DNA from: Bacteroidaceae bacterium
GTDB taxonomy: Bacteria; Bacteroidota; Bacteroidia; Bacteroidales; Bacteroidaceae
Direction of reading: 5' to 3'
DNA: 64,000 bases
NCBI GenBank assembly: GCA_050946375.1
Contig: JBMNUT010000005.1
Coordinates: 7,522-71,521, forward strand
Every line of letters starts with the position of its first letter. Positions within the stretch are counted from its first letter, which is position 1. Below are positions 13,835-31,561 of this stretch, one piece after another. A program made the position numbers and the translations under genes. The notes below the pieces were generated by a model. It ran no database searches, had not been told where the DNA came from, and worked only from the letters and a program-made list of their open reading frames with translations.

Positions 13835-13844
13835 CTCCTATTAT

Positions 13845-13976: not shown

Positions 13977-16877
13977 ATGAAAACAAGATTGTGCTGTTTG
14001 TGCTCTAACTTGGCGTTCGGTCTTTTTCTTATGGTCGGTACCGGTATGCTGGTATCTTCGTGTAAGAGCGACTTGGACGAGTTGCTGGAAGACGGCACCT
14101 CGCCGGAATGGTTGGGTTCGAGCATTTATTCCACGTTGCAAGAACGGGGGAATTTTAACTACACGTTACGCTTGATCAACGACATGCCCGGTTATGCTTC
14201 TATCCTCTCGCGGACGGGTAGCCGTACTGTCTTCGTGGCAAACGACGATGCTTGGGAACGTTTCTTCCGGGGCGAATCGTATAACCCGTGGTTGAACCCC
14301 GGTGAGACCATGACGTACGAAGACCTTACGCAGGCACAGAAGCAGTGGATCATGAACAACTCGATGATCAATGCAGCTTACCTGATTGAGCGCCTCTCTA
14401 CGACCTCTTCCAACGGTTCTTTCTCCGAGGGGCAGGCTATGCGCCGTGAGGCATTTACTTCGCAAGAAGATACCACGAAAATCTACTACGGAGACCAGAT
14501 TACGAACAAGCTCTCCGGTTTGAGAACTCAGAACACGCATTGGGACAACATCCTCAACACGGAAGATACACTCCACCTCGGCTATGCGCGCAACGATGAA
14601 GTTCTTATGGTGCACTTCACCGACGATCTGCGTGAGAACAAAGGCATAACCGATTTGGATATGAGCTACATCGTGGGTGGAAAAGGCACGGAAAACGCAA
14701 CGGATGCCTATGCTGATGATTTGACGAACCGTCCCTGGGCTTCTGATGAGGAGCGCGAAAATCGTACCTATATATATACGGATCCCGTTATCGAGCAGGA
14801 CATCACCTGTCAGAACGGATACATCCACGTGTTGGGCGACGTGCTCGTTCCGCCTTCCAATATGGCCGACGAACTGGAGAAGCAGGAAGACTGCTCGATT
14901 TTCTCCAGCTTCCTGGACCGCTACACCATGCCGGTCGTAATCGGTCGTACGTCCAACGGCAAGAACATCTATCGTAAGGTGTACTTCGCTGCCAGTGGTT
15001 CGTATGACGGCTCCAACTACGAAAACGCAGGTTCTACCGGTCTGTCGCGCGACTCCAGTGACAACGAAATGGCAACGCTTGCTTTCGACCCGACGTGGCA
15101 CCACAATACTTATTCTACTGAAACCTATCAGCAGAACATGGCAGCCATGTTTGTTCCGACCAACGAGGCTCTTACCGAATGGTGGAACAGTTCTACCGGT
15201 CAGCTGGTCATGAACGGCATGTCGGACTGGAGTGAAGTGGAAAACAGCTTGCTCCGCGTGCTGATCAACGTACACATGAAAACGAGCTTCACCAACAGCT
15301 TGCCTTCCAACTTCTCCCGCATCCTGAACGACGGTAACCGCGAGCAGGGAATCACCGAGAGCGATGTGGTACGCACGATCTTGGCAAACAACGGCGTAAT
15401 CTATGTAGTAAATAAGGTATATACGCCCGACTCTTATATTTCCGTTATGGCTCCGCTTCACAACGTGGCAGAATTGACCGTAATGCAGCGCGCCGTAACC
15501 TGCACCGACCAGACGACTTACATCCCGGACGGATACGGAACGTATCTGAACTCCATGGAAAGTACGTTTACCTTCCTCATTCCGGAAAACAGCGCTCTGA
15601 TCGATTATCGTGATCCTATTTATTGGAATGCCGCTTGGGCTACCGGCGACTATCGTCAGATCAGCTTCGAGTATAACACGACTTCTACGTGGTCATCTTC
15701 TACCGGAACACGTTTCAACGTAGGTGCTACCTATCAGGATGTGACCGACGCTACTTCGCAGTCCGGTACTATTGAGGGTACCAAGGGTATGAACCTGCTG
15801 AAGGATATTCTGGAGAACAGCATTATCGTGATGGACAACAACAGCGCTCAGTCGGAATGGACCTCCGGAAACGGCGGCTACTACCAGACGAAGGGCGGTG
15901 CTATGGTATACATCGATCGTTTTGCTGAAGGTGGCCATGTATATGGTGGTGGTAACACGGACCGCGCTTCCGGCGAATATGATCCGGCTACGGTAACCGT
16001 CTTCTACAACCAGTCGGCTTACAACTTGAACGGTATGACCGGTTCTGACGGTAACGGTGTTTCCCTCCAGCTCGACAAGGTGGTACAGCCTTCGCGCACG
16101 AGCGTGTTGGATGCTTTGCAGCAGCACGATGAGTTCAGCGAGTTCTATAATTTGCTGACCGGTCTGGATGAAGTACTGGCTACCTACGAAGATGCTACGG
16201 AAGACCCCGGTCTTGACGACGAAGAGGGCGACGGTTCTGAAACGGGAACCGGTATGTCTACCTTCCTTACGGCTGTGAATACCAATGCGGATACAGCTCG
16301 TCTGTATAATCCTGTTTATAATTACACTGGAACTTCCACGTACACCAAGTCGCCTGTAATCAACTTCTTGGGTAACTACAACTACACGTTGTATGTTCCG
16401 ACCAATGAAGCTATGGCTGAGGCTTATGCACAAGGTCTTCCTCACTGGAGTGACCTGACTGTTCCGGGAATGACCGACGGACAACAACGTGAGATCTGCC
16501 GCAAGATCATGAACTTCATCCGTACGCACTTCCAGGATACTTCTATTCCTACCAACGGTAATGCCGGCTACTACAAATCGCAGTCGTTCAACTCGGCAGA
16601 AGGTGTGTTCTATGAACTGTATTTCGATCCGGCAGCTGGTGAGGTGTACACCCGCGAGCAACCCAGCGAAAGAGCTCATCTGGTAGACCCCACCACCAAG
16701 GTGCCTGCACGCGAAAACCTTTCGAACATCATTTCGCGCGATTATCGCTTCAGTGCTGCAGCTACGAGCGATGCTGCTACGATTTCTTCTTCTGCACACG
16801 TGTTGATTCACGCCATCGATGCTCCCTTGTTCATCAGTGCGTTGGACAACAATGGAATCAGAGAACAATTTGAATAA
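13977..16877 (+). CDS. Lipoprotein with about four fasciclin (FAS1) domains
   Basis: Lipoprotein signal ...GMLVSSCKSD. Repeated FAS1 H1/H2-type motifs: TVFVANDDAWERFF / NGYIHVLGDVLVPP; AMFVPTNEALTEWW / NGVIYVVNKVYTP; FTFLIPENSAL; YTLYVPTNEAMAEAY / HVLIHAIDAPL. Confidence 0.75.
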   Translation: MKTRLCCLCSNLAFGLFLMVGTGMLVSSCKSDLDELLEDGTSPEWLGSSIYSTLQERGNFNYTLRLINDMPGYASILSRTGSRTVFVANDDAWERFFRGESYNPWLNPGETMTYEDLTQAQKQWIMNNSMINAAYLIERLSTTSSNGSFSEGQAMRREAFTSQEDTTKIYYGDQITNKLSGLRTQNTHWDNILNTEDTLHLGYARNDEVLMVHFTDDLRENKGITDLDMSYIVGGKGTENATDAYADDLTNRPWASDEERENRTYIYTDPVIEQDITCQNGYIHVLGDVLVPPSNMADELEKQEDCSIFSSFLDRYTMPVVIGRTSNGKNIYRKVYFAASGSYDGSNYENAGSTGLSRDSSDNEMATLAFDPTWHHNTYSTETYQQNMAAMFVPTNEALTEWWNSSTGQLVMNGMSDWSEVENSLLRVLINVHMKTSFTNSLPSNFSRILNDGNREQGITESDVVRTILANNGVIYVVNKVYTPDSYISVMAPLHNVAELTVMQRAVTCTDQTTYIPDGYGTYLNSMESTFTFLIPENSALIDYRDPIYWNAAWATGDYRQISFEYNTTSTWSSSTGTRFNVGATYQDVTDATSQSGTIEGTKGMNLLKDILENSIIVMDNNSAQSEWTSGNGGYYQTKGGAMVYIDRFAEGGHVYGGGNTDRASGEYDPATVTVFYNQSAYNLNGMTGSDGNGVSLQLDKVVQPSRTSVLDALQQHDEFSEFYNLLTGLDEVLATYEDATEDPGLDDEEGDGSETGTGMSTFLTAVNTNADTARLYNPVYNYTGTSTYTKSPVINFLGNYNYTLYVPTNEAMAEAYAQGLPHWSDLTVPGMTDGQQREICRKIMNFIRTHFQDTSIPTNGNAGYYKSQSFNSAEGVFYELYFDPAAGEVYTREQPSERAHLVDPTTKVPARENLSNIISRDYRFSAAATSDAATISSSAHVLIHAIDAPLFISALDNNGIREQFE

Positions 16878-16896
16878 TAAATAGGATTATATAATT

Positions 16897-19800
16897 ATGA
16901 AAGAACGACTGAAATACATATTGCTTTTTGCAATATTCTGTAGCTCGCAGTTATTACTCTGGGCCCAGGACGACGCGGCAGACAATATGGTGCGCGGTAC
17001 CGTGACATCGAAAGCCGACGGCCTACCCATGATGCAAGTAAACGTAACGGAGGTGGATGCGAACAACCGTATCTTCTCTGCTACAGTGACCGATATGAAC
17101 GGTGAGTTCTCCATGAAAATCAAAAACCCGAAGAATTCCCTGCAATTCAAATATATCGGATATAAGACCGTGACTCGGGGTATGAGCTCAGGCGAACGTG
17201 TCTTCAACATCGAAATGGAAGAAGACAACATGCTGGAGACCGTCTCGATTACTGCAAAACGTACCTCCAACACGGGTGCGCTCGACATTCCCGAACGGGA
17301 AATCTCTATGGCGGTGCAGAAAATCAGTACCAAGGAATTTGAAGGTATTTCTGCTGCATCTATCGATGAAATGTTGCAAGGACGTATCGCCGGTCTTGAT
17401 ATTCTGTCCAACTCCGGTGACTTGGGTAGCGGTATGAACATGCGCTTGCGTGGTGTATCTACCTTGAGCGGTAACACGCAGCCTTTGATCGTGGTCGATG
17501 GTATCGTGTTCGAAACGAACTCTACGACCGACCTCGACTTTGCTACGGCTACGGAAGACCAATATGCTGAATTGCTGCAAATCAGCCCGGACGATATCGA
17601 AACCATTACGGTATTGAAGGATGCTGCCGCTACGGCTATCTGGGGTTCCAGAGGTTCTAACGGTGTATTGCAGTTTACGACGAAGAAAGGTGTACGTGGT
17701 AAAACACGTGTTCAATACACCTATCGTTACTCCGGTAAATGGCAGCCGAAGGGATATGACCTCCTGAACGGTGACCAATATACAATGTATATGAAAGAGG
17801 CATACTTCAATGCCGCTTACGATGCTGCCGCTGCCGACGTGCCTGAAATTTCTTACCTCCCGCTGAACCAGTTCGGATATGCCAACGAGTTTGACGATAA
17901 TACCGACTGGGTAGACGAAATCAAACAGTACGGTCAGACGCACGACCACTATGTAACGGTAACCGGTGGTGGTGAAAAAGCGCGTTTCCGTATATCCGGT
18001 GGTTACTACGATGAAAAAGGTACCATCATCGAGCAGAACTATACGCGTTATTCTTCTCGTATGAACTTGGACTACTTCGTATCCGACCGTTTGAAATTTA
18101 CGACTGAGTTCTCGTTCACATTCTCCGACAACAAGGAAAATGCGGACGACCTGATGAACATTGCCCTGCGCAAGATGCCTAACCTCTCTATCTATCGTGA
18201 GGATGCAAACGGCAACGACACGCACGACTACTTCACTTATCCTGCCTACAATTCGGAAGTTACCGGTATCTATGCTACGAGCGACATCGGTAGCCAGGAC
18301 GGTCTGGTGAACCCCATTGCTTCTGCACATTTGGCGTACAACAACTCGCAGACATACCGTATCATCCCGACCTTCCGTATTCAGTATGACTTCCTGGATC
18401 CGACCAAGACGCGTCTGTTGTATAAGGGTTACATCTCGTTCGACGTGAACAACAGCAGCAGCGACTCCTACTATCCGAAAGAACTCTCTTCCGGTACGGT
18501 TTGGTACGACCAGGCACAGACCGGTACGTATAATGAGAACAAGAGCCTCGGTGTGGCTATGGAACATGCGTTGACATTCACTCCGAAGTTCGCCAACGAC
18601 GACCACTCTCTGATGCTGTATGCGGCCTTGCAGATGAACTGGGGTAACAGCTCCGGACAGACCATCGGTTCCGACCGTCTGCCTTCGGGCATCACTTCCC
18701 CGTCTACGGGTACGTATCTGAGCAACTTGGCTTCCGGTCCGGGACGCTGGCGCAGCATGGCATGGGTAGGTACAATCCACTATGCTTATCAAAGCCGCTA
18801 TATGGTTGACTTCGTGATCCGTCGTGAAGGTTCGACCAAGTTCGGTAGCGATAACAAGTTCGGTAACTTCCCCGGTATATCTGCACGTTGGAACCTCTCC
18901 GACGAGTCGTTCATGGATTGGTCCGACAGCTGGTTGAACATGTTCTCTATCCGTCCCAGCTGGGGTGTCTCGGGTAATGCGCCCAGCAGCGAATACCTTT
19001 ATTATAGCCGCTACAACCAGAACAACGGTTACATCAATACTTCCGGTTTGTCTCCTGCCAACGTACAGATGACCCGTCTGAAATGGGAAAAGACTTCGCA
19101 GTGGAACATCGGTTCGGATATCGAATTGTTTAACGGCAAACTGGCCGGTGACTTCAACTACTACCACAGCTTGACGACCGACCTGCGCGTAAACCTCTCC
19201 GTACCGACCTCATCCGGTTTCACGACGTATGAGAACTGGAACTCCGGTGAAATCCTCAACCGTGGTTGGGAAGTCAACTTGAATGCATACGACCTCCTGA
19301 AGTTCGGTGACTTCTCGGTAGACTTCAACTTCAACATCGCAAACAACATCAATACCATCGAGTTCCTGGATGAGTCCGTATTGGCCAGCTACAACTCCGA
19401 ATATGGTTACAGCAACGGCGAATACCTCTCCCGTATCCAGCTGCACAACGCCTTCGGTTCTATCTACGGTTTCCGTTACAAAGGCGTTTACCAGTACAAC
19501 TATTCTTATAAGAACAGTGAGAACGTAGGTCGTCGCGACCAGGGTTACGCCGGCGAGCCGGTTGCACGCGATGCTGCAGGCAACGTAATCTACGACGAGA
19601 GCGGTGCTCCGAAGCACATGGTATTCCACTTCGGCGATGCCAACCAGTATACCTTCGCCGGTGGTGATGCTATCTACGAGGATATCAACCACGATGGTAA
19701 CATCGACGCACTCGATATCGTTTACCTTGGTAACTCTAACCCGGACTTCAACGGTGGTTTCGGTGTTAAGTTCAAATATAAGAGATTGTCGCTGAATATC

Positions 19801-20229
19801 TTCAGTAACTTCCGTTATGGTAACAAGATTGTCAACACGGCCCGCCTGAACCTGGAGAGCATGCGCGACGGTAACAACCAGAGCGTATCCATCAACTGGC
19901 GTTGGCGTAAGGACGGTGACGTGACCAACATGCCGCGTGCACTGTACGATGCCGGTTACAACTCCCTGGGTAGCGACCGCTACGTAGAAGACGGCTCCTT
20001 CTGGCGTATCAAGTACATCACCTTGAACTACTCCATCGATCCGAAGCTGTTGAAGAAGTACTACCTCTCTCAGTTGAGCTTCTACTTTACCATCAACAAC
20101 CTGTGGTGCTTCAGCAAATATTCTGGAGTTGATCCTGAAGTTTCCTACGGTACGTGGGGTGTATCTACCGATAACGCGCAAACACCGCGCTCTCGTTACT
20201 TCACCGCCGGTATTACCGTTGCATTCTAA
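16897..20229 (+). CDS. SusC/RagA family TonB-linked outer membrane transporter
   Basis: Signal peptide; CarboxypepD_reg-like segment VRGTVTSKADGLPMMQVNVTEV; plug motif ISPDDIETITVLKDAAATAIWGSRGSNGVLQFTTKKG; 1110 aa; C-terminal YFTAGITVAF (terminal Phe). Confidence 0.9.
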   Translation: MKERLKYILLFAIFCSSQLLLWAQDDAADNMVRGTVTSKADGLPMMQVNVTEVDANNRIFSATVTDMNGEFSMKIKNPKNSLQFKYIGYKTVTRGMSSGERVFNIEMEEDNMLETVSITAKRTSNTGALDIPEREISMAVQKISTKEFEGISAASIDEMLQGRIAGLDILSNSGDLGSGMNMRLRGVSTLSGNTQPLIVVDGIVFETNSTTDLDFATATEDQYAELLQISPDDIETITVLKDAAATAIWGSRGSNGVLQFTTKKGVRGKTRVQYTYRYSGKWQPKGYDLLNGDQYTMYMKEAYFNAAYDAAAADVPEISYLPLNQFGYANEFDDNTDWVDEIKQYGQTHDHYVTVTGGGEKARFRISGGYYDEKGTIIEQNYTRYSSRMNLDYFVSDRLKFTTEFSFTFSDNKENADDLMNIALRKMPNLSIYREDANGNDTHDYFTYPAYNSEVTGIYATSDIGSQDGLVNPIASAHLAYNNSQTYRIIPTFRIQYDFLDPTKTRLLYKGYISFDVNNSSSDSYYPKELSSGTVWYDQAQTGTYNENKSLGVAMEHALTFTPKFANDDHSLMLYAALQMNWGNSSGQTIGSDRLPSGITSPSTGTYLSNLASGPGRWRSMAWVGTIHYAYQSRYMVDFVIRREGSTKFGSDNKFGNFPGISARWNLSDESFMDWSDSWLNMFSIRPSWGVSGNAPSSEYLYYSRYNQNNGYINTSGLSPANVQMTRLKWEKTSQWNIGSDIELFNGKLAGDFNYYHSLTTDLRVNLSVPTSSGFTTYENWNSGEILNRGWEVNLNAYDLLKFGDFSVDFNFNIANNINTIEFLDESVLASYNSEYGYSNGEYLSRIQLHNAFGSIYGFRYKGVYQYNYSYKNSENVGRRDQGYAGEPVARDAAGNVIYDESGAPKHMVFHFGDANQYTFAGGDAIYEDINHDGNIDALDIVYLGNSNPDFNGGFGVKFKYKRLSLNIFSNFRYGNKIVNTARLNLESMRDGNNQSVSINWRWRKDGDVTNMPRALYDAGYNSLGSDRYVEDGSFWRIKYITLNYSIDPKLLKKYYLSQLSFYFTINNLWCFSKYSGVDPEVSYGTWGVSTDNAQTPRSRYFTAGITVAF

Positions 20230-20249
20230 TCTTAAAAGAATAAGTTGAA

Positions 20250-22097
20250 ATGAAAAAGTCAATTAAGAAAATAATATTGCTTCCGGCTATTGCCTTGAGC
20301 TTGTCATCTTGTACGGACTGGCTGGAGCTGAAACCGACCACGCAGATTGTTGAGGAAGACATGTGGAAGAATCAGGACGACGTGGAAGCCGTTGTCGCTT
20401 CCTGCTACAATGCCATGCTTTCCAACAACTTCATGACGAGGGTCATTGCCTACGGTGAGTTGCGTAGTGATAACATGAACTACAACCGCAACAAGAGCGA
20501 CGAGCTTTCCACCGATGACCAGGAGATGTACCGAAGCGTTTCGCTCTCGAGTATTACTTCTACGGACTGGATCTGTTCGTGGTCTGCATTCTATAATGTG
20601 ATTAACATCTGTAACTATGTAATCCATTATGCACCCAGTGTCTGCAACGTCGATCCGGACTACCTTACGAGTGAGATGAATGCGAACCTGGCCGAGGCCC
20701 GCGCAATCCGCGCCTTGTGTTACTTCTATCTGATCCGTACCTTCGATAAGGTGCCCTATGTAGAAGAACCGACCATCAACGATCAGCAGGAAGTCAACCT
20801 GCCTCAGACTTCGCAGGACGAAATCATCGAGCACATGATTCAAGACCTCCAGTTTGCCGTACAAAACGCACGTTCGGTATATCCTTCTGCTGAAGAAACC
20901 AAATACCGCATCACGCGTCGCGGTGCTGCCGCCATCCTGGCCGATGTATATTTGTGGAAGGCTTCCGGACAGAGCTATCCGCAGGACTCCATCACCTATG
21001 ACCTGGCCATCAAGGCTTGTGACATGGCTTACAATACCAACGAGACTCCTTCGCGTGTGACCGGTTCGGGACTGTACTCCTTCTATGCCTTGTGGGATGG
21101 AAACGGAAGCTACGGAAACATCTTCTCCAGCTCCATCGAAAACGGAAGCTATCCGAATGAAGAACTGATCTTCGCTCTGGATGCGCGCGAAAGCACGTTT
21201 GGAACGCAGACGGCAGGCGCAAGAGAAACGGGTACCTATATGTCCGTCAACCAGCTGTATGGTCCGGTTGGAACTTCCGGTACACGCGGCGACTTGGCTA
21301 CGCACTACCTGGTAGCGCCGAACGACAACTATCCGACTCAGTCGTCCTTGAGTTCGGTGGACTTCTCCGACGTAAACTCTTCTGTATTTAAGGTTGTTCA
21401 AACTGCTGCCGGCGGTACCAACGATGTCCGTTACGGTTATTGCTCGGGCCTGAACAGCAACTCATACCTTATATATAAGTATAACGGTGGTCAGTCCAGC
21501 ATAACCAACTATCCGGACTGGATCTTCTATCGTGTTTCGGATATCTATCTGATGAAAGCCGAAGCCATTGCCGAGAAGATGAACTGCCGCTTCGAATACG
21601 TAACCGATCCCAATACGGGTACGCGCTCCCTGAGTTTCCGTAACTGGACGGAGAACCCGACCGCTTATCAGGACTCGATGGCGAAAGTGCGTGACCTCTG
21701 TTATGCCGTGTTCCAGCGTTGCAACCAGGCAAGTGCAAATACCGGTTATACGAACTATGCGACCAACCAGTTGCAGACGTCGCCGTACTCCTACTTCCCC
21801 GCTTTGGTTTATGCAGAACGCCGTCGTGAATTCCTCTTCGAAGGAAAGCGTTGGTTCGACCTCCTGCGTATCGCCCGTCGTAACTACAAGCGTGACGCTT
21901 CCTCGTTCACGACCGAACTGGTTACCGCCGTGCGTACCAAACTGGACGAAGGTGCCGACCTTATCGGTTCCCGCCTGGCTTCGATGGACGCCCTCTACTG
22001 GCCTGTCTACGACGACGAGTTGGATCGCAACCCGGCTCTGGTGCAGAACGCATACTACCTCTCTACCGAGGAATCGGATGATATGGAAATTCAATAA
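20250..22097 (+). CDS. SusD/RagB family nutrient-binding outer membrane lipoprotein
   Basis: Lipoprotein signal LSLSSCTDW; SusD hallmarks ARAIRALCYFYLIRTFDKVPYV and ERRREFLFEGKRWFDLLR; starts 20 nt after the SusC gene. Confidence 0.85.
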   Translation: MKKSIKKIILLPAIALSLSSCTDWLELKPTTQIVEEDMWKNQDDVEAVVASCYNAMLSNNFMTRVIAYGELRSDNMNYNRNKSDELSTDDQEMYRSVSLSSITSTDWICSWSAFYNVINICNYVIHYAPSVCNVDPDYLTSEMNANLAEARAIRALCYFYLIRTFDKVPYVEEPTINDQQEVNLPQTSQDEIIEHMIQDLQFAVQNARSVYPSAEETKYRITRRGAAAILADVYLWKASGQSYPQDSITYDLAIKACDMAYNTNETPSRVTGSGLYSFYALWDGNGSYGNIFSSSIENGSYPNEELIFALDARESTFGTQTAGARETGTYMSVNQLYGPVGTSGTRGDLATHYLVAPNDNYPTQSSLSSVDFSDVNSSVFKVVQTAAGGTNDVRYGYCSGLNSNSYLIYKYNGGQSSITNYPDWIFYRVSDIYLMKAEAIAEKMNCRFEYVTDPNTGTRSLSFRNWTENPTAYQDSMAKVRDLCYAVFQRCNQASANTGYTNYATNQLQTSPYSYFPALVYAERRREFLFEGKRWFDLLRIARRNYKRDASSFTTELVTAVRTKLDEGADLIGSRLASMDALYWPVYDDELDRNPALVQNAYYLSTEESDDMEIQ

Positions 22098-22117
22098 CGT
22101 AGCTTGAATACTTGAAA

Positions 22118-24127
22118 ATGTTTCATTTTCTAAGAAATAGCAAACTGTTGGCAGCTGCCTTGGTAGCCCTTTGGGGTATGTCGTCGTGTACGAACGACGA
22201 CATACCTTCCGACAGCTACTACACGTTCACGGGACAGACTCTGGGCCAGTATCTGGAGAGCCACCCCGATGAATACAGTGACTTCGTGCAGTTGCTGAGC
22301 CGCTCGTATGTGGATACCGATGAAGGCGGATCGACCGTATTCGAAATGCTTAATTCCTACGGTTGCTACACCTGCTTCGCGCCCAACAACGAGACTCTGG
22401 CAAAATACCTGCGCAAGGAAGGGCTGAATTCCATAGAGGAAGTTTCGGATTCCGCCGCAAGAGTTTTGTCATTGATGAGCATCGTTGCTTCCGAAGCGAC
22501 CGTATATGAGTCGCAGTACTTCGTAAATCGCTTGCCCGATCAGAATCTGTACCGGAAAACCATCTATATTTCAGGTGATGGGACTTCGTATCTGGTCAAT
22601 GGCATGGCCAACATTACGGAAGTGGACATCGAGGTGCACAACGGCGTCATCCAGTCTGTCGATTCCGTGCTGGAACCTTCCGACCTGACGCTGCTCGGCT
22701 TCTTCGACGGACATCCTGAGTATTCTCTCTTCCGGGAAGCTCTGGAACTGACGGGAGTCTACGAACGTGTGAATTCGGAACAGGAAGACTTGAACTATGT
22801 GCCGCCTACGTCGATGACGGGTAACGACGGCGCTACGATTCAGGATTTCCCCACACGCCGTTTCTATGGCTTCACCTGTTTCCTTGAGCCGAACTCCGTG
22901 TACGAAGCTGCCGGCATTACCGACATCGAAGGCCTGAAGGATTATGCTCGTCAGTGGTTTACTGAAACCTATGAGGAGGATGCTCCTGAAATCTATGCCT
23001 TGGGAGACAACGAGAACTATCTCGACACGAACAATTACTTTAATCGTTTTGTGGCCTATCATTTTGTGAACAAGACCATATCGCAGGCCGACTTTACCGA
23101 AGTAGGCTGGACGTATATGAACGGTTACGATAAGTACTTGGACTATACCGAGACGCTTGCTCCGGGCCAGACGCTGTGTCTTGCAGCAGGAAAGAACTCC
23201 TTTGCCAGCGATGAATACAGCGATCGTCTGCAGCTCAATCCTTCGGCCGACCATGTGGCCCTGGAGGGTGTTTCTCCCTACCGCAACTGGAGCCGTCCGA
23301 CGCGCAACGGAGTCCTCCTGGCACAGAAGAGCCAGATGGAAAGTTCCATCGGTGTTTTCCACGAGTTGGAAGGCATTCTGACTTATCCGCGCAGTGATTT
23401 CCGACGGATGCGCATGCGTTTGGACTATGCCGCCTTGTTCCCCGAAATGATGAGCAACTCCATCCGTTACACGGTGAAGGAACTCAACGGTTATGGCTTG
23501 CCCAACGGCTACCTTACCAACTTCTGGGTGAACTCTACGGGTACCACGCTGCTCTACATGGCTACTCCTTCCCAGCCCTCTCCGGGATGGTGGAATGACT
23601 TCCAGAGCGACGAGTTCATCGCTAAGGGTAACTTCGACTTCACGGTCAAGCTGCCTCCTGTACCCGCCGGGCTCTATGAAGTTCGTATCGGTTACACCGT
23701 AAACGGTAACCGCGGTTGTGCCCAGATGTATCTCGGCAGCTCGTTGGATAACCTGATTGCCAGCGGTATCCCCGTAGACCTTACCGTCTCGGGCGACAAG
23801 CATGGATGGGTGAAAGACGAAAACACCGATGTCGACTATGAGTCGGATAAACTCTTGCGCGCCAATGGCTTCATGAAAGCTCCGAACTCTTCGAAGTCGG
23901 ATGCCGGATATGGTACCTCCAGCTTGCGCGAAGTAGGTGCGGACGCTTTCCCCGAGTATGCCTTGCGCTGCATTGTCGGTACGCATCAGCTGACCACGGA
24001 CGGAAGCATTTATGTCCGTTTCCGGAACGCTACGACCAGTACGACTCCCGAGTTCATGATGGACTACATAGAGGTTTGCCCTGCAACCATCTATGATAAC
24101 CCGGATGAAACGGAACCACGCGATTAA
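22118..24127 (+). CDS. FAS1-domain lipoprotein with a C-terminal beta-sandwich (CBM-like) module
   Basis: ORF 22112 (TTG) trimmed to the ATG at 22118. Lipobox GMSSCTNDD. FAS1 motifs CYTCFAPNNETLAKYL / HNGVIQSVDSVLEPS. The C-terminus ...GLYEVRIGY...EFMMDYIEVCP resembles the edge strands of carbohydrate-binding modules (inference). Confidence 0.7.
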   Translation: MFHFLRNSKLLAAALVALWGMSSCTNDDIPSDSYYTFTGQTLGQYLESHPDEYSDFVQLLSRSYVDTDEGGSTVFEMLNSYGCYTCFAPNNETLAKYLRKEGLNSIEEVSDSAARVLSLMSIVASEATVYESQYFVNRLPDQNLYRKTIYISGDGTSYLVNGMANITEVDIEVHNGVIQSVDSVLEPSDLTLLGFFDGHPEYSLFREALELTGVYERVNSEQEDLNYVPPTSMTGNDGATIQDFPTRRFYGFTCFLEPNSVYEAAGITDIEGLKDYARQWFTETYEEDAPEIYALGDNENYLDTNNYFNRFVAYHFVNKTISQADFTEVGWTYMNGYDKYLDYTETLAPGQTLCLAAGKNSFASDEYSDRLQLNPSADHVALEGVSPYRNWSRPTRNGVLLAQKSQMESSIGVFHELEGILTYPRSDFRRMRMRLDYAALFPEMMSNSIRYTVKELNGYGLPNGYLTNFWVNSTGTTLLYMATPSQPSPGWWNDFQSDEFIAKGNFDFTVKLPPVPAGLYEVRIGYTVNGNRGCAQMYLGSSLDNLIASGIPVDLTVSGDKHGWVKDENTDVDYESDKLLRANGFMKAPNSSKSDAGYGTSSLREVGADAFPEYALRCIVGTHQLTTDGSIYVRFRNATTSTTPEFMMDYIEVCPATIYDNPDETEPRD

Positions 24128-24151
24128 CACCGAAAACGTAAATAATAAAAA

Positions 24152-25948
24152 ATGAATATACGAATGAATAAATTACTGTTAGGTGTGCTGCTCCTTGCCG
24201 GAGGCACGGCGCTGCACTCGTGTAGTGATGAGTGGGACGATCACTACTCTGACTCCGGTTCCAATGCCGTCAACTCGACAGGTATATCGCTTTGGGATCG
24301 TTTGAAGTCCATGCCGGATTACAGTGCCTTTGTGGAGAAACTGCAGGAGTACGACTACGACCGCATCCTCTCCCAAAACCGCGCTTTCACGGTTTACGCC
24401 CCGAACAACGCAGCGATGGCTAATTATGTAGCCAACGGGCAGTATAACGAAAAAGATGCCTTTGTGCGCAACCACATTGCTTATTTCAATCATCCCTACA
24501 ACACGTATGCTGATACGACGGTCGAGATGATGAATGAAAAGGTAATGCGCATACGGGGTGGTCTGTTCGGAACCAATCAGGACCCGAACATCGCCTTCGT
24601 CGAGGGTGAGACCAACCTGCCTTGCCGCAACGGCCTTATCCATGGCATCTCCGGCATCGTGCCTTACATGCCGAACATCTGGGAAATCATCGATGCGCAG
24701 GCTCCTCTCTACAGCCAGTATCTGCACCAGTTGGACGAGCAGGTTCTGAATACGGAAGAAAGTACTGTGGACTCCATCAGTTCGGATGGCCAGACGGTAT
24801 ATCTCGACTCGGTTGTTACCTATAATAACAACTTCTGGAGCGTCGTAGGCGAACTGAATACGGAGGATAGCTCCTACGTATCGATTGTGATGGCTGACGA
24901 CGCCTGGCAGGCTGCCTACAGCCAAATAGAGAAGAGCTACCTTTATTATCCTGCATTGCAGGGTGGAAATTTCTGGGAAGGTGCCGGTAATACGCAATCT
25001 CAGCAAGACTCCTTGAGTCGTTATAAGGATGCAATGATTTATCAGACCATCATGCGTTCCTTGTCTTACCGTTATCCGCAGGTAGAATCGCTGCTCGAAG
25101 GCAACTACCGCCCCGACTACGATTTCATTTCCTCTACCAGTGGTCGTCAGGTTCCCAAAGAGGTGCTGAAGGCTTGGCTGGAGAAAATTGCTGCTAATCC
25201 GGATTCCGTAGAAGAAGCAAGTAATGGTCGGGCTTACATCGCTCACTCCTATGACTTCGCCAACTACGATGTCGCTCAGGATACCATCTCGACTGAGGCC
25301 GAAAACTCGCAGCGCATCTTCCAGGTTTCATCCGGTGCCAGCCAAAGCACGGTACGCTTGAATACCGATACGCTGTCCTATTCTACTTATCAGCCCGAAG
25401 AAGAGTTGAATAACGTAGAGTATTACGTTCCCAAGACGTTGCCCGACGGAACGAAGGAGAAGCACGAAGTGTCCAGCTCCGAGTATCTGATGGTTGGTGC
25501 GGGTACTGCAGCTCCGAGCATTATCTTCGGTGTGCCCAACACGCTCTCCGGAGAATACGAGGTGTGGATTACCTTTATTCCTTCCAGCGCGGCCAGAGGT
25601 GCCAGCCAGGCTCTGCCTGCCAACATCCGTGTAACGACTCAGTACACGACGTTACGTAGCGAAAGCTCGCTTGCCTTAGGGACGACCCGTACGGACGACT
25701 TCCCCGTTGATGCACGTGCCGTGACGAAGGTGAAAGTGGGTACGATCAATCTGGGAGCTTGCTGGTCAGGCTTCATGAGTGCTTCTGATGATTTGTACAC
25801 GGATGCAACCAATATTACCGGAAGTGACCTCTTCAATTCCAAATATGGTGTGAAGATTACCGTTCAGAACCGTAGCAGCAGCAACGGTGAATACGACCGT
25901 AACCTTTATATCGACTGCATCGAATTAGTACCGCATCGAGTTGAATAA
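24152..25948 (+). CDS. FAS1-domain lipoprotein with a C-terminal beta-sandwich (CBM-like) module
   Basis: Lipobox ALHSCSDEW. FAS1 motifs AFTVYAPNNAAMANY / RNGLIHGISGIVPY. The C-terminus GEYEVWITF...NLYIDCIELVP parallels that of the preceding gene product. Confidence 0.7.
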   Translation: MNIRMNKLLLGVLLLAGGTALHSCSDEWDDHYSDSGSNAVNSTGISLWDRLKSMPDYSAFVEKLQEYDYDRILSQNRAFTVYAPNNAAMANYVANGQYNEKDAFVRNHIAYFNHPYNTYADTTVEMMNEKVMRIRGGLFGTNQDPNIAFVEGETNLPCRNGLIHGISGIVPYMPNIWEIIDAQAPLYSQYLHQLDEQVLNTEESTVDSISSDGQTVYLDSVVTYNNNFWSVVGELNTEDSSYVSIVMADDAWQAAYSQIEKSYLYYPALQGGNFWEGAGNTQSQQDSLSRYKDAMIYQTIMRSLSYRYPQVESLLEGNYRPDYDFISSTSGRQVPKEVLKAWLEKIAANPDSVEEASNGRAYIAHSYDFANYDVAQDTISTEAENSQRIFQVSSGASQSTVRLNTDTLSYSTYQPEEELNNVEYYVPKTLPDGTKEKHEVSSSEYLMVGAGTAAPSIIFGVPNTLSGEYEVWITFIPSSAARGASQALPANIRVTTQYTTLRSESSLALGTTRTDDFPVDARAVTKVKVGTINLGACWSGFMSASDDLYTDATNITGSDLFNSKYGVKITVQNRSSSNGEYDRNLYIDCIELVPHRVE

Positions 25949-25964
25949 AAAAAAAGTGAATGCT

Positions 25965-28900
25965 ATGAATAAGATAAAAGAATTCATTGGAAATTTGCAT
26001 GTCCTGGGAACAGGGTTGTGCATGTGCGCGTTGGCCGGTACGGTTTCCTTGCACGCTCAAGATGCTGCAACGAATCCTCCTACGCCAGCGAGCGAAGAAA
26101 ACTTAGTCACCGTGCAGGGTAAAGTCATCGATGCGGCTACCAAGCGTCCCATCGTCGGTGCACGTGTGCAAATGGTAGGCCGTTTGTATTCGGCCATGAC
26201 CAACGAAAACGGCGTATATACCTTGAAAGTCCCCACCGCTGCAGCTGTCGTAGAGGTAACGGCTGAAGACTACGCTACCCGCGAAGTCGGCTTGCGCAAT
26301 CAGAGCGAGGTAGACATACAGCTCTACTCCACCACTTTCACCGGACTGTACGAGAATGTACAGACTTTGACGGGTGCAAAGAGCAGTGCCAGCATGATTA
26401 CGCCGTATGCCCAGGTAGCCGGTAGCAACAAAGACGGTGCCTATACCGTAGACCAGTCTATCGCTGCCAAACTCTCCGGCCAGATGCGTGCCATTACCCA
26501 TTCGGCTGTTCCCGGAAACGGTATCTCCATGTTTATCCGTGGCTTGAACTCTATCAATGCGCAGGCTGCCCCCCTGATTCTGGTGGACGGAGTCGTATTT
26601 GATAACCAGGTCGACCGTCATTCAATATTGGAAGGCTATTTCAACAACCCGCTTTCTTCCATTGACATGAACGACGTAGAAGACATTACCATCCTCAAGG
26701 ACGGTACTTCTCTCTACGGTAGCCGTGGTGCCAATGGCGTAGTCCTCATCACTACCAAGCGCGGCCGCAGCCAGGCTACTCAGATTGAGGTCAATGCTTA
26801 TACCGGCTTCAATGAGAAACCCAAACTCCCCGACATGATGAATGCCGAGCAGTTCCGCCGTTATGCAAGTAACTTGGCCATCGACGACCCCGACTATTCC
26901 GATTATGATAACATCGCATGGTTGAAGCACACTTCGCTCATCACCCGTCCGGACGGTACGGTTACCAACATGCAGCAGTACCGCTCTTATACCAACGAGA
27001 CCGACTGGGCCGACGAAGTGTACCGCAACACCTTCATGCAGAGCTACAGCATCTCGGTAAACGGTGGTGACGAATCTGCGTTGTACAACCTCTCCGTAGG
27101 TTACACTAATGCTCCTTCTACCTTGAAGAACAGCAGCTTCAGCCGTTTGAACGCACGGTTCAACTCCGATATTCAGATCTTCTCCCGCCTGGCAATGGCC
27201 GTAGATATCTCCTATTCGCAGACCGACCGTACCGCTCCTAACGATGGTGCACCTGCCGACTACACGAGCGACCCTGTAACCTCCGTAGGCTACCTGGCTC
27301 TTATCAAGGCTCCGTTCCTGGCTCCTTACCAGTTCACCCGTGACGGTTACGTTTCTCCCAACTACAGCGATGCAGACGTATTCGGCGTTTCCAACCCGAC
27401 CGCTTTGCTCGACGAAGACCGCAACCGTTATAAGAACGAGGCCAACCACATCAATATCACCGCTACTCCGAAGCTCGACCTCGGCCGCGGCTTTGAATTG
27501 AGCACCAAGTTCAGCTATACGCTGGATAAGACGGTAGAGGCTTACTTCCGTCCCCGTAACGGTTCGCCTTCCTTTGACCGTGGTACCGGAACGCTCGCTG
27601 AGAGCACCGTGAAGACCCTCTCTGCAAAGCAAATCTCCGTATTCAGCGATACGCGTCTGAATTGGAAGAAGAGCTTCAACCAGCACAACCTCGACGTGCT
27701 GTTGGGTTATCGCTTCACCTCCGATCAGTACCAGTCTGACTGGGCACGTGCCGACAATACGGCCAATGACTACATCAACACCATCACGGCCAGCCTGCCG
27801 AACCGTATTGCCGACGGTGTGGACGACCGCGTGAAGACTGCAGCCATATATGCCAATATCGACTACAACTGGTTGAACCGTTACTTCCTGACGGGAACTC
27901 TCTCGTTCGACACCTCCACCCGTTTCGGTAGCGATGTAGACGGAGCTGTTCACCTCGGCGACCACTCTTGGGGCTTCTTCCCCTCCATTCAGGGAGGCTG
28001 GATCATCTCCAACGAGCCGTTCCTCCAGGATGTTGACTTCCTTTCCTTCGCACGTCTGCGTGCCGGATACAGCATCACGGGTAACGACCAGATCCTGAAC
28101 TATGCGTACAAGACCTACTTCTCGCCGTTCTTCTATTATGATCGTATCTCCGGTCTGGAACTTGCCAACATCGGCAATGAGACTCTCGGCTGGGAGCGTA
28201 ACCACAAGTTCAGCGTTGGATTGGACGTTTCGTTGTTCAACGACATCTTCTCCTTCTCTATCGACGGTTACAAGAACCACATCACCGACCTGCTTACTCA
28301 GGTAGAGATGCCTGAAATCAGCGGTATGTCCAACAAGTATTGGACCAACAACGGTACGATGGACAACACCGGTGTCGAGGTTTCGGCCCGTGCCAAGTTG
28401 TTGAACCTGCGCGACTTCAAGTGGGAACTCGGTGCAACCATCTCTCACTACAAGAACGAAGTGAAGTCCCTCATCGACGGTAAGTCCGTAATCAACCAAT
28501 ACTACGGTGCTGAAATCATCACTCAGGAAGGCAGTCCTGCCGGACTCTTCTACGGTTATGAGACGATGAAGCGCGACGGAAACACCTACGTGTTCGCAAC
28601 TTCTGACGAAGCCCGCCTGGCTACTCAGAACAGTGCTGACGGAAGCGGCCGCCTGGCCATCGAAGACGAAACGGGCGAGCTTACCTACTTCGAAGCCGGT
28701 GACGTATTCTTCGTAGATCAGAATGGCGACGGTATTATCGACGAGCAAGACCGCACGGTCATCGGCGACCCGAACCCCGACTTCATCGGTAACATCACCA
28801 CCCGTTTCCAGTGGAAGCGCTTTACGCTCGACGCTCTCTTCACCTATTCCGTAGGTAACGACGTCTACAACTATCTGCGTCGTCAGCTCGAGTCGGGTAG

Positions 28901-29264
28901 CACCTACTACAACCAGACTACCGCAATGAACTCAGCATGGAGCTACGAAGGTCAGGTTACTTCCATGCCGCGTGTTACCTACGACGACCCGATGGGCAAC
29001 AGCCGCTTCTCCGACCGTTGGATTGAGGATGGTTCCTACTTCCGTTTGAAGACCTTGAGCCTGTCTTATGACATCCCCATCAACTCTTCCTACCTGCAGG
29101 GCATTACCATCTGGGCTTCTGCCAACAATTTGTGGACGGCTACGAAATATCTCGGTTCCGATCCCGAATTCTCCAACAGTGGTGCTGTTCTCTACCAAGG
29201 CGTAGACTCCGGACTCCTCTCTCAGGGCCGCAGCTATTACTTGGGTGTGAAGTTAAATCTCTAA
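25965..29264 (+). CDS. SusC/RagA family TonB-linked outer membrane transporter (second copy)
   Basis: ORF-track TTG at 25941 overlaps the upstream stop, so it is trimmed to the ATG at 25965 (MNKIKEF...). CarboxypepD_reg-like VTVQGKVIDAATKRPIVGARVQMV; plug DMNDVEDITILKDGTSLYGSRGANGVVLITTKRG. Confidence 0.9.
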   Translation: MNKIKEFIGNLHVLGTGLCMCALAGTVSLHAQDAATNPPTPASEENLVTVQGKVIDAATKRPIVGARVQMVGRLYSAMTNENGVYTLKVPTAAAVVEVTAEDYATREVGLRNQSEVDIQLYSTTFTGLYENVQTLTGAKSSASMITPYAQVAGSNKDGAYTVDQSIAAKLSGQMRAITHSAVPGNGISMFIRGLNSINAQAAPLILVDGVVFDNQVDRHSILEGYFNNPLSSIDMNDVEDITILKDGTSLYGSRGANGVVLITTKRGRSQATQIEVNAYTGFNEKPKLPDMMNAEQFRRYASNLAIDDPDYSDYDNIAWLKHTSLITRPDGTVTNMQQYRSYTNETDWADEVYRNTFMQSYSISVNGGDESALYNLSVGYTNAPSTLKNSSFSRLNARFNSDIQIFSRLAMAVDISYSQTDRTAPNDGAPADYTSDPVTSVGYLALIKAPFLAPYQFTRDGYVSPNYSDADVFGVSNPTALLDEDRNRYKNEANHINITATPKLDLGRGFELSTKFSYTLDKTVEAYFRPRNGSPSFDRGTGTLAESTVKTLSAKQISVFSDTRLNWKKSFNQHNLDVLLGYRFTSDQYQSDWARADNTANDYINTITASLPNRIADGVDDRVKTAAIYANIDYNWLNRYFLTGTLSFDTSTRFGSDVDGAVHLGDHSWGFFPSIQGGWIISNEPFLQDVDFLSFARLRAGYSITGNDQILNYAYKTYFSPFFYYDRISGLELANIGNETLGWERNHKFSVGLDVSLFNDIFSFSIDGYKNHITDLLTQVEMPEISGMSNKYWTNNGTMDNTGVEVSARAKLLNLRDFKWELGATISHYKNEVKSLIDGKSVINQYYGAEIITQEGSPAGLFYGYETMKRDGNTYVFATSDEARLATQNSADGSGRLAIEDETGELTYFEAGDVFFVDQNGDGIIDEQDRTVIGDPNPDFIGNITTRFQWKRFTLDALFTYSVGNDVYNYLRRQLESGSTYYNQTTAMNSAWSYEGQVTSMPRVTYDDPMGNSRFSDRWIEDGSYFRLKTLSLSYDIPINSSYLQGITIWASANNLWTATKYLGSDPEFSNSGAVLYQGVDSGLLSQGRSYYLGVKLNL

Positions 29265-29283
29265 TGATATAAACGAAGAAACA

Positions 29284-31464
29284 ATGAAAAAAGCAATAAT
29301 TATAGGAATGTGCGCCGCTGTAATGGGCACAGGCTTTACTTCGTGCTTGGATGTCGAGAACGAGCGTTTTGCCGAAGTAGACCAGATGAGCACGAGCGAC
29401 TCCGCTTTCTATTTCCTGAGCATCCTCAACGGTGTGAAGACGCTGGCTCCCCGCCTTGTCGTGCTGGGCGAATTGCGCGGTGACCTGATGACGGCTACGA
29501 ACCATGCCGCCACCGAACTCCGCGAAATCGACCAGTGGACGCTCAATCAGAACACCGACAACAAGTACCTCAGCAAGACGGAGTACTATAATATCATCAA
29601 CCAGTGTAACTACATCATCGAGTATGGCGCCGCTCTGCCCAAAGAGCAGGCGGCTGCCACCGCGATGCGTGCCTGGACCTACCTGCAGTTGGCTATCAAC
29701 TACGGACGGGCTGCATATTATGAGAACTTCATCGCCAGTGAGGAAGCCTCCTATGCCGACTATCCCAAACTGGGTGTAGATGAACTGGCCGGAGAGCTTA
29801 TCCCGCAGCTCGAAGCCATCCTCAATGTGCCCCCCGTGGATTACGGAACCTACGGTACGGACTTCTCCATGCAGATCTTCAACCCCCGTTTCGTATTGGC
29901 AGAACTTTACCTCTGGCGTGGTGCCGGCCGTTCCGACTATGTGCGGGCTGCTGAGCTCTACTATGACCTCATCGTAAACGACTACCCCAATGCCGAGAAC
30001 CAGAACACGCCCCGTTATGCAGCAATACCTATGGATTTCTCTTCCGGTACGTCTTCCAGTTCGTCGGCCACGCAGCGTGTATATTATAGTAATTCCCGTA
30101 TGAATCCGATGAACTGGTCGAGCGGCTGGGATCGTACTCTCTCGGGACTAACTCCAATTTCGAGCGAAGAGAATGCACAGCAGACGTTGGTTGATGGGAT
30201 GACTGACGTGCGCTATACCACGGGCGAGAATGCAGTAACCTGTAATCTGGATACTCTGACCGGTCTGATGGCCTCTTCTACGAGCCTGAGTACCAGCGAC
30301 CGTCTGGAAGCAATCTCCCTGACCGCTACGCGCGCCATGTCTTCCATTTTCTCCTCTACGCTGTACACTTTCTACGAGGATGAAACCGACCTGTACACCC
30401 AGGATGGAAACACGGCTTTCAGCAACTACCTGAACCATTCGAGCCTTGAGTCCGACGTAACCACCCGTTTGGGCGACCTGCGTATCAACGAGACTTATAC
30501 GCCCAATCCCGGTTCCGGTATTACGATTAGCGGTGGAAGCATCGTGAGCACTTATCCGGACAGTGTGATAGCCAAGTATCTGGATGTTACTTCGGGTAAT
30601 AAGACCATCACCATTGCCCGTTCGGCTTACCTCTATCTGCGCTATGCCGAGGCTGTAAACCGCGCCGGCAAGCCGGGTCTGGCCATGATTGCCTTGAAGT
30701 ATGGTTTGAACCAGCTCAACGTTCGTTTCTACATGCCTGCCAGCGAGAAGCTCTCCATCGACGGCGAAGATATGACGTTTGCCCTCTATCTGCGTGACTA
30801 TGCGAACGACCAGTCTTCTGTTTCCTATACTTCCCGTGTGCCCCAGCCGTTGTATGCCATCGAGAACGGCACCGATACGGTAGAAGTCGGTACTTTCGTC
30901 TACGATGCTACCGAGAGCCGTCTGAAGGCTTCCATGCCGGTGAGCGTGGCCGACCAGTATCTGCGTTCCGACGGTGCCGGTTATCGTATTCCGGTTACCC
31001 ACATGGAGAACGGTCGCTACATCATTGGCGAGAATGCCGTGGCAGAAACGACTCCTAACTACGCATTCTATTGCTTCAAGGATACCACCGAGTCTTACTA
31101 CGACTTCCCCACCACTATGTATGCCAACGTAGGTCTCCACTGGCGTGGTGCCGGTTGCGCCGCTCTCGACTCTACCTATCAGATGCCGAACGTGCGCTAT
31201 CCGGGCAATGTAGAAGCTCAGCAGGCTTACATGGACTCCGTTATCTGTAACGAGTATGCTTTGGAGACAGCTTTCGAAGGTGGACGTTTCGCCGACCTGA
31301 TGCGTCTCTCCAAGCACCGCAACGATCCGAACTTCCTCATGTATTACTTGGGCCGGAAGTATGACCAAGCGTTTATCGAAAAGTTGAGAGGCCGTCAAGG
31401 TTCTGTTCCTTCCAGCGGTTGGGATTATTCCTCTTGGTATTTGCCCGACTACGAGAAAGAATGA
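29284..31464 (+). CDS. SusD/RagB family lipoprotein, unusually long (726 aa)
   Basis: Lipobox GFTSCLDVE. SusD-like helices AMRAWTYLQLAINYGRAAYY, SAYLYLRYAEAVNRAG, CNEYALETAFEGGRFADLMRL. Starts 19 nt after the second SusC gene. Confidence 0.75.
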   Translation: MKKAIIIGMCAAVMGTGFTSCLDVENERFAEVDQMSTSDSAFYFLSILNGVKTLAPRLVVLGELRGDLMTATNHAATELREIDQWTLNQNTDNKYLSKTEYYNIINQCNYIIEYGAALPKEQAAATAMRAWTYLQLAINYGRAAYYENFIASEEASYADYPKLGVDELAGELIPQLEAILNVPPVDYGTYGTDFSMQIFNPRFVLAELYLWRGAGRSDYVRAAELYYDLIVNDYPNAENQNTPRYAAIPMDFSSGTSSSSSATQRVYYSNSRMNPMNWSSGWDRTLSGLTPISSEENAQQTLVDGMTDVRYTTGENAVTCNLDTLTGLMASSTSLSTSDRLEAISLTATRAMSSIFSSTLYTFYEDETDLYTQDGNTAFSNYLNHSSLESDVTTRLGDLRINETYTPNPGSGITISGGSIVSTYPDSVIAKYLDVTSGNKTITIARSAYLYLRYAEAVNRAGKPGLAMIALKYGLNQLNVRFYMPASEKLSIDGEDMTFALYLRDYANDQSSVSYTSRVPQPLYAIENGTDTVEVGTFVYDATESRLKASMPVSVADQYLRSDGAGYRIPVTHMENGRYIIGENAVAETTPNYAFYCFKDTTESYYDFPTTMYANVGLHWRGAGCAALDSTYQMPNVRYPGNVEAQQAYMDSVICNEYALETAFEGGRFADLMRLSKHRNDPNFLMYYLGRKYDQAFIEKLRGRQGSVPSSGWDYSSWYLPDYEKE

Positions 31465-31520: not shown

Positions 31521-31561
31521 AGAGAACCTGCCCCGGAAACGAGGCGGGTTCTCTTTTTTTA
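31521..31561 (+). terminator. Rho-independent terminator of the FAS1/SusCD operon
   Basis: AGAGAACC(T)GCC / GGCGGGTTCTCT stem followed by a T7 run (31555-31561); starts 57 nt after the SusD stop. Confidence 0.8.

Follow-up and report, generated by a model that had tools for sequence, protein, structure and literature searches.

We analysed a 64,000-nucleotide (nt) stretch of DNA, hereafter the window, from a Bacteroidaceae bacterium (GenBank assembly GCA_050946375.1, contig JBMNUT010000005.1, positions 7,522 to 71,521). The subject is an operon of seven long open reading frames (ORFs), which lie head to tail on the plus strand at 13977-31464 in the order FAS1(x4), SusC, SusD, FAS1, FAS1, SusC, SusD. 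This set of seven is called the heptad below. Its genes and signals were as follows (aa, amino acids).

13845..13877, plus strand: putative Bacteroidetes-type promoter motif, read from the sequence; TTTG (-33), N21, TAtcTTTG (-7), about 100 nt 5' of the first start codon
13977..16877, plus strand: FAS1a lipoprotein, 966 aa; Pfam Fasciclin; four predicted tandem FAS1 domains; lipobox Cys29
16897..20229, plus strand: SusC1, 1110 aa; TIGR04056 and TIGR04057; signal peptide, CarboxypepD_reg, plug and barrel
20250..22097, plus strand: SusD1 lipoprotein, 615 aa; SusD_RagB and SusD-like_3; Cys21
22118..24127, plus strand: FAS1b lipoprotein, 669 aa (671 aa from the alternative start 22112); Pfam Fasciclin
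24152..25948, plus strand: FAS1c lipoprotein, 598 aa; Pfam Fasciclin; Cys24
25965..29264, plus strand: SusC2, 1099 aa; ATG 25965 preferred over TTG 25941 (1107 aa); TIGR04056
29284..31464, plus strand: SusD2 lipoprotein, 726 aa, long and divergent; SusD_RagB; Cys21
31521..31561, plus strand: intrinsic terminator; 12-bp GC-rich hairpin at 31521-31554, then U7

The intergenic gaps were 19, 20, 20, 24, 16 and 19 nt when the ATG starts at 22118 and 25965 were taken, which confirmed the range of 16-24 nt given in the original prediction. The pattern TTTG-N(18-22)-TAnnTTTG was found twice in the window (0.57 expected; two or more copies in 12 of 100 shuffles), each time just 5' of the start of an operon. 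The copy at 3524-3555 lies about 60 nt 5' of a fumarate reductase/succinate dehydrogenase operon (3617-7036) and is consistent with a genuine promoter. The terminator folded with -27.2 kcal/mol (z = -4.4), and none of 200 shuffles was as stable. One promoter and one strong terminator had been predicted, and both were recovered at these positions. Scans for sigma-70 promoters and simple terminators gave the same counts as shuffles and were uninformative for a Bacteroidota operon. The gene geometry, namely the gaps, the promoter motif and the terminator, suggested that the seven genes form a single transcription unit.

The predicted gene order was retained, with all assignments above the curated Pfam and NCBIfam cut-offs. 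SusC1 and SusC2 matched TIGR04056 (SusC/RagA) with 699.9 and 659.7 bits (cut-off 368.25), and the TIGR04057 signature gave 49.4 and 48.1 bits in the two SusCs (cut-off 46.2). SusD_RagB (PF07980) gave 72.2 bits for SusD1 and 36.5 bits for SusD2 (cut-off 23.1), and SusD1 also matched SusD-like_3 (PF14322) with 61.5 bits. Each SusD gene starts 19-20 nt after its SusC. Over the N-terminal 246 residues, SusD2 and SusD1 shared 25% identity. Neither SusC gave a Pfam match to the STN domain (PF07660). CarboxypepD_reg begins at residue 32 in SusC1 and at residue 58 in SusC2, directly after the signal peptide, and leaves no room for an STN domain. The absence of a signalling extension was therefore correctly foreseen.

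The FAS1 assignment also stood in the profile searches. Fasciclin (PF02469) was matched with 55 bits by FAS1a, 49.2 bits by FAS1b and 24.8 bits by FAS1c (gathering cut-off 22). The AlphaFold2 model of FAS1a (mean predicted local distance difference test, pLDDT, 77) was aligned by Foldseek to TGFBIp and periostin over about 950 columns (E 2e-18). TGFBIp and periostin are four-FAS1 proteins. Four domain-end motifs of the type NG-x-hydrophobic-H/x-x-hydrophobic-D were located in FAS1a at about 280, 473, 693 and 945. As judged from the predicted model, the claim of four FAS1 domains in this protein holds. The model of FAS1b (pLDDT 82) consists of two FAS1 domains, matching FAS1 structures such as fasciclin I (E 1e-11), and a C-terminal beta-sandwich. 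The nearest structures to the sandwich in Foldseek were Cry-toxin domain III, the carbohydrate-binding module (CBM) CBM6 and further glycan-binding modules. Most of the invariant residues of the FAS1b family, many of them Arg, Lys, Tyr and Glu at positions 434-657, fall within this C-terminal module. FAS1c has an N-terminal FAS1 region, which hhalign aligned to the FAS1b family with 98.9% probability over the N-terminal 240 columns only. Beyond this region, no similarity between FAS1b and FAS1c was found by BLASTP or hhalign. The three FAS1 proteins, and likewise the two SusC/D pairs, are deeply diverged, old paralogues.

All five non-barrel products carry a lipoprotein Cys with acidic residues a few positions after it. 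In FAS1a, Cys29 is followed by KSDLDE, in FAS1b the lipobox Cys is followed by TNDDIPSD, and in FAS1c, Cys24 is followed by SDEWDD. Acidic residues after the lipoprotein Cys are a Bacteroidetes surface-export signal. Because of this arrangement, the residues were taken to mark the three FAS1 and two SusD lipoproteins as surface-displayed. FAS1a is single-copy in the genome, and FAS1b-type lipoproteins occur in five copies, the operon copy and four orphan paralogues. The orphans lie outside the window (C9:84212-88861, C2:133341-135470 and C2:256956-259055), share the N-terminus C-TNDDIPSDSYYTFTG and the C-terminal module, and have no SusC/D nearby. Two of them stand in tandem directly after the gene of a 1360-aa protein, which appears to be secreted by the type IX secretion system (T9SS). 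Sequence searches of the PDB with the three FAS1 proteins returned generic FAS1 domains only, including TGFBIp, periostin and the Rhodobacter fasciclin-like protein 1W7D, and no solved bacterial homologue. A search of the literature for fasciclin or FAS1 together with SusC/SusD, polysaccharide-utilisation locus (PUL), TonB or Prevotella gave nothing relevant save one figure legend, which mentions a 'FAS1 domain protein' in a Gramella PUL.

No enzyme or regulator domain was detected in any of the seven products with Pfam and NCBIfam, as had been predicted. The surroundings were also compared with a strictly defined PUL, which has clustered carbohydrate-active enzymes (CAZymes) and a dedicated regulator. 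No CAZyme lies in or beside the operon; the nearest are glycoside hydrolases (GH) of families GH115 and GH2, 16-22 kb off and separated from it by housekeeping genes. The flanks consist of the 7TM-HD gene, gltX and waaA upstream, and of metallophosphoesterase, ABC-F and PepP genes downstream. No hybrid two-component sensor (HTCS), extracytoplasmic-function (ECF) sigma/anti-sigma pair or SusR-like regulator adjoins the operon. An HTCS of the periplasmic-binding-protein (PBP) type is encoded 8 kb downstream, with unrelated genes between.

The heptad was then traced in other genomes. A search with a FAS1a alignment found homologues in 466 species-representative genomes, and 270 of 401 sampled genomes of the bacterium's own family had one. 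Gene order was compared in the best 80 FAS1a loci, 63 of which had enough DNA. The order FAS1a-SusC-SusD-FAS1b-FAS1c-SusC was intact in 53 of the 63 loci and truncated or frameshifted in 4 more; 6 lacked FAS1b and none was rearranged. Carriers included rumen and gut Bacteroidaceae/Prevotellaceae, Paludibacter, Prolixibacteraceae and Marinilabiliaceae, with the cultured Maribellus and Alkalitalea among them. The heptad is a widespread, ancient cassette of which this operon is one copy, and it is among the most widely conserved Sus-type cassettes traced in this analysis. Three loci (L026, L068, L082) had a second FAS1a-like gene after SusD2 or two heptads back to back, and many genomes of the family had two FAS1a homologues. 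Complete Bacteroidota-type FAS1-SusCD cassettes were also found in two loci (L069, L088) of JAMPGY01, which is labelled 'MAG: Clostridium sp.'; this bin is probably mislabelled or contaminated.

An enzyme of family GH128 was a recurrent partner of the cassette. Adjacency was counted over 58 loci with enough upstream DNA. A GH128-type gene (about 900-1000 aa, Glyco_hydro_cc PF11790) stood directly upstream on the same strand in 20 of these, and a GH128-like gene lay within 10 kb of the cassette in 24. The view that the operon is unusual, or enzyme-less as a type, was not sustained, given how widespread the heptad is and that about one third of its relatives have such a gene directly upstream. 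No GH128 gene lies beside this operon, and adjacency was likewise absent in 38 of the 58 relatives. Pfam named Por_Secre_tail, the T9SS C-terminal sorting domain, in the three cassette-adjacent GH128 copies that it annotated. Classical HTCS, GH43, GH88 and GH2 genes were further recurrent neighbours. Among 301 evenly drawn genomes of the order, GH128 was present in 9 of 12 with the cassette and in 20 of 289 others (Fisher p = 3.7e-8, somewhat inflated by kinship among genomes). In the SusC1 tree, the operon fell inside a 75-row GH128-linked clade (Shimodaira-Hasegawa approximate likelihood ratio test, SH-aLRT, 100) together with Alkalitalea saponilacus and all GH128-adjacent copies, and GH128 adjacency was seen on both sides of this operon's branch. 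By gene order and positional orthology, the operon was assigned to the GH128-linked heptad clade of the A. saponilacus PUL 10 type.

In A. saponilacus (CP021904), the order is GH128(T9SS)-FAS1a-SusC-SusD-FAS1b-FAS1c-SusC-SusD, followed by two LamG/cadherin T9SS proteins. The seven genes and their order are thus the same as in our operon, and the SusC1 proteins belong to the same superclade. Identities to our operon were 46% for SusC1, 38% (partial) for SusC2 and 27-30% for FAS1a, FAS1b, SusD1 and FAS1c. Our genome also encodes a full-length orthologue of the A. saponilacus GH128. The difference is that in A. saponilacus the GH128 gene lies directly upstream of the cassette, whereas the enzymes of our genome are all elsewhere. 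The A. saponilacus locus is the PULDB-predicted 'PUL 10', CDL62_12280-12355, with the GH128 listed as CDL62_12280 and with two GH16_3, GH43_34, GH2 (GH2_1), GH31 and GH97 further on (PMC13591233, 2026). By reverse-transcription quantitative PCR (RT-qPCR), that study found the SusC gene CDL62_12310 and the SusD gene CDL62_12315 to be strongly induced when laminarin replaced glucose (PMC13591233). We mapped these two genes to SusC2 and SusD2 of the cassette by counting locus tags in steps of five, not by sequence. Only these SusC2/SusD2 transcripts were assayed, and fasciclin proteins are nowhere mentioned in the study (PMC13591233).

Candidate partner enzymes were located in our genome on other contigs. 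Three long GH128-like proteins are encoded on contigs C10, C3 and C2. Their NEP and E-W catalytic motifs align to the GH128 structure 6UAQ (E 7e-26). By eye, their C-termini resemble T9SS sorting domains; a Pfam match to Por_Secre_tail was obtained only for the copies of relatives. Since the T9SS component SprA is encoded in the genome, a T9SS is present. Over 895 aa, the C10 protein and the A. saponilacus PUL 10 enzyme shared 36.5% identity, and against cassette-adjacent GH128s the C10 protein scored about 600 bits. A classical HTCS, one of three on contigs other than the operon's, is encoded about 4 kb from this orthologue in divergent orientation. The C10 cluster also holds a CBM4_9/ricin protein, an 1875-aa repeat protein and a terminal GH43+RicinB protein. 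The C-terminal ends of the first two were read as T9SS-type. The GH43+RicinB protein matched PDB 6EUF (E 1.6e-179), which we take to be B. thetaiotaomicron GH43_24, and also the exo-beta-1,3-galactanases 7BYS, 5FLW and 3VSF. A literature search for the code 6EUF found no paper. The gene of the 1875-aa protein (C10:38181-43808) follows directly after the GH128 orthologue and encodes four nearly identical repeats of about 440 aa; no homologue was found in the related loci searched. The island on C3 consists of GHL10, GH88, a lipoprotein, another GH128-like gene and GH2, and a homologue of its lipoprotein is encoded upstream of the A. saponilacus GH128. With these likely partners located in the same genome (T9SS-type GH128-like proteins, GH43_24, GH88, GH2 and HTCS on C10 and C3), the original proposal of a dedicated capture-and-import apparatus with degradation supplied in trans was upheld.

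The Sus repertoire of the genome was small. In the assembly (2.57 Mb, 95% complete), the SusCs of the operon were the only TIGR04056 matches above the cut-off, and its SusDs were the only PF07980 matches. About nine other TonB-dependent receptors are encoded. In two of four sampled congeners, too, the heptad pair made up the entire SusC set. Further genera of the family with small genomes had 3-11 SusC genes, and Bacteroides-like members had at least 32 each. No SusC or SusD gene was found elsewhere in the assembly, and this lineage, whose repertoire is reduced, thus retains the heptad as its last importer of the Sus type.

From these results, we think it fairly probable that this operon of the GH128-linked heptad clade supplies the core that binds and transports glycan at the outer membrane in a split polysaccharide-utilisation system, with a beta-1,3-linked glycan as the most likely substrate. 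The T9SS-secreted GH128-like endoglycanases from C10, C3 and C2 would cut the polymer at the cell surface. The three FAS1 lipoproteins would serve as surface glycan-binding and scaffold proteins, FAS1a as a four-domain rod and FAS1b, probably also FAS1c, as a FAS1 stalk bearing a C-terminal binding module. SusD1 and SusD2 would cap the two TonB-dependent SusC barrels, and the barrels would import the oligosaccharides. Breakdown would be completed by the periplasmic exo-enzymes GH43_24, GH2 and GH88. A classical hybrid two-component sensor, most plausibly the one beside the C10 GH128 orthologue, would turn on both the enzyme island and the operon. A more specific proposal for the FAS1 lipoproteins is offered tentatively. 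They may be an uncharacterised glycan-binding and scaffold class that joins two different SusCD pairs into one fixed 'double utilisome', with the FAS1a rod and the FAS1b/c stalks carrying binding modules. This would be the sole Sus-type importer kept in such genome-reduced gut lineages, fed by T9SS enzymes encoded elsewhere.

The substrate is probably a beta-1,3-linked glycan. Within this class, our single best guess is a beta-1,3-glucan such as laminarin, callose or that of fungal walls, since GH128 enzymes are known to act on this polymer and the one experiment on a homologous cassette points the same way. Several findings weigh against the reading as a split beta-1,3-glycan system. The laminarin link is one RT-qPCR in a distant relative (30-46% identity), with the tags assigned to genes by counting. 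Identity between the long GH128-like enzymes and characterised GH128s is only about 30%. The HTCS candidates of this genome were all about 25% identical to cassette-adjacent HTCSs in a best-hit search, so the best hits did not single out the cognate sensor. The genome has one GH16 and no GH3, and a standard laminarin end-pathway was not evident. PF00933 (GH3) had no match anywhere in the genome, NagZ-type enzymes included, while 10 of 14 control genomes had one. The GH43_24, GH88 and GH2 clustered with GH128 here and in Paludibacter suit arabinogalactan at least equally. Given the GH16/GH3 content and the co-clustered GH43_24, GH88 and GH2, we therefore commit only to a beta-1,3-linked glycan and regard arabinogalactan as the main rival.

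According to this rival, the apparatus is the same and the substrate is type II arabinogalactan, with a beta-1,3-galactan backbone and decorated side chains; the GH128-like proteins would be endo-beta-1,3-galactanases. The last member of the C10 GH128 cluster is the GH43+RicinB protein, which belongs to the exo-beta-1,3-galactanase family, the C3 island holds GH88 and GH2, and the window itself holds GH115 and a further GH2. In Paludibacter (L077) and others, the cassette has GH43_24-like, GH88-GH43 and GH2 genes on its flanks, and GH43_34, GH2_1 and GH97 occur in A. saponilacus PUL 10. To our knowledge, however, every characterised GH128 is a beta-1,3-glucanase. PL27/PL42 (PL, polysaccharide lyase), GH16 galactanase and GH35 did not turn up either, although no search was aimed at them. 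Furthermore, gum arabic did not support growth of A. saponilacus, and laminarin was what the SusC/D of its cassette responded to (PMC13591233). We regard arabinogalactan as rather unlikely on balance.

The heptad might instead be a broad-specificity importer that serves several scattered enzyme sets, such as the GH128 islands, an orphan PL11, GH115, GH2 and others. This would agree with its status as the only source of SusC/SusD pairs in a 95%-complete genome, with the same situation in two of the four sampled congeners, and with CAZymes that are scattered without transporters, the orphan PL11 being an example. The two SusC/D pairs, as old and divergent paralogues, would leave room for two specificities. 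However, SusCD pairs studied so far are substrate-specific, and the other TonB-dependent receptors, about nine, could take other substrates. The tight conservation of the cassette with one enzyme family also argues for one main substrate. The chance of a broad-specificity importer was put lower than that of the arabinogalactan system.

Distant copies of the heptad in Bacteroides-like genomes of the same family raised the question of pectin. In one such genome (G668), the genes flanking FAS1a-C-D-FAS1b-FAS1c-C-D encode two rhamnogalacturonan lyases of family PL11, GH28, an HTCS and an esterase, and each heptad gene best matches its positional counterpart. In B. thetaiotaomicron, the rhamnogalacturonan-I (RG-I) locus comprises SusC/D BT4164/65, the surface glycan-binding protein (SGBP) BT4167, SusC/D BT4168/69 and the lyase BT4170, as summarised from Luis et al. 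2018 in PMC8002723. The G668 heptad fits this published layout, and the PL11 of our genome shares 56% identity with that of G668. A function as an RG-I importer was nevertheless disfavoured, because the SusC1 tree places the pectin-type copies outside the 75-row clade that holds this operon (SH-aLRT 100). FAS1 proteins of the G668 type matched at E ~1e-25, versus 1e-100 or better within the GH128-linked clade. No pectin enzyme lies beside the operon, and no GH28 was found in this genome with the G668 query. The PL11 (C5:122897-124837, about 51 kb past the window end) is isolated among housekeeping genes, and neither a transporter nor a further pectin enzyme lies nearby. We consider the pectin function improbable. 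The weakest alternative takes the FAS1 proteins for adhesins that bind host or matrix glycoproteins, with the SusCDs importing peptides or glycopeptides in the manner of RagAB. In its favour, FAS1 acts in adhesion in animals and some bacteria (compare the matches to TGFBIp, periostin and 1W7D), and S8 peptidase and PepP genes lie downstream in the window. It is very improbable, since free-living Marinilabiliales and Prolixibacteraceae from sediments and soda lakes conserve the cassette just as well, it is constantly accompanied by glycoside hydrolases rather than peptidases, and FAS1b bears a CBM-like module. Nothing supported the host or matrix glycoprotein ligand suggested originally.

The preferred reading, a split beta-1,3-glycan system, was also compared with known systems. 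As in a canonical Sus-like PUL or 'utilisome', a SusC TonB-dependent barrel and a SusD lid are encoded alongside extra surface lipoproteins. In contrast to it, the accessory lipoproteins here are built of FAS1 domains rather than of SusE/F-type immunoglobulin-like/CBM tandems, two non-identical SusCD pairs stand in a fixed heptad, and neither enzyme nor sensor lies in this locus. The Bacteroides RG-I PUL core, as seen in G668, shares the two tandem SusC/D pairs with lipoproteins between; it differs in belonging to a separate distant clade, in FAS1 proteins that are barely alignable and in having pectin enzymes instead of GH128. The heptad appears to serve as a chassis for more than one glycan. 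Dodd et al. reportedly described xusA-D, tandem SusC/D pairs that form the xylan core of Bacteroides and Prevotella xylan PULs. Our operon shares with it the tandem SusC-SusD-SusC-SusD in one operon, but the partners of xusA-D are GH10 enzymes and FAS1 lipoproteins are absent from it; this comparison is one of gene layout.

Some features of the flanks were noted separately. Between the 7TM-HD gene and the operon promoter, 1.1 kb (12874-13976) is without a credible ORF, and no Rfam family was matched in 12000-33000. In a relative with 50% identity (L001), only about 230 nt separate the 7TM-HD gene from the operon. Downstream, two genes on the same strand occupy 31894-33550. The first encodes a metallophosphoesterase lipoprotein and runs into the start of the second, which encodes a 267-aa protein without a Pfam match. 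The pair begins about 430 nt past the operon terminator and is missing in the syntenic L001, where a 240-aa gene and an HTCS-like gene stand instead.

Loci of this kind, to which the operon belongs, have been catalogued before but little studied. The original prediction had named, as evidence that would speak against it, homologous PULDB loci already tied to a defined substrate and enzyme set. Such evidence was found in part, since A. saponilacus PUL 10 has an enzyme set and laminarin induction, and a distant heptad occurs in an RG-I lyase locus. One homologue of the heptad already has a substrate attached. The three fasciclin lipoproteins of the cassette are almost unmentioned in the open literature. 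What they do, and whether the two SusCD pairs form one machine, is a question common to hundreds of copies. The present copy is a natural experiment, as it is the sole Sus-type importer in a 2.6-Mb genome and is physically apart from the enzymes and the sensor. The role of the FAS1 lipoproteins and the co-regulation of a split locus are therefore directly addressable in this lineage.

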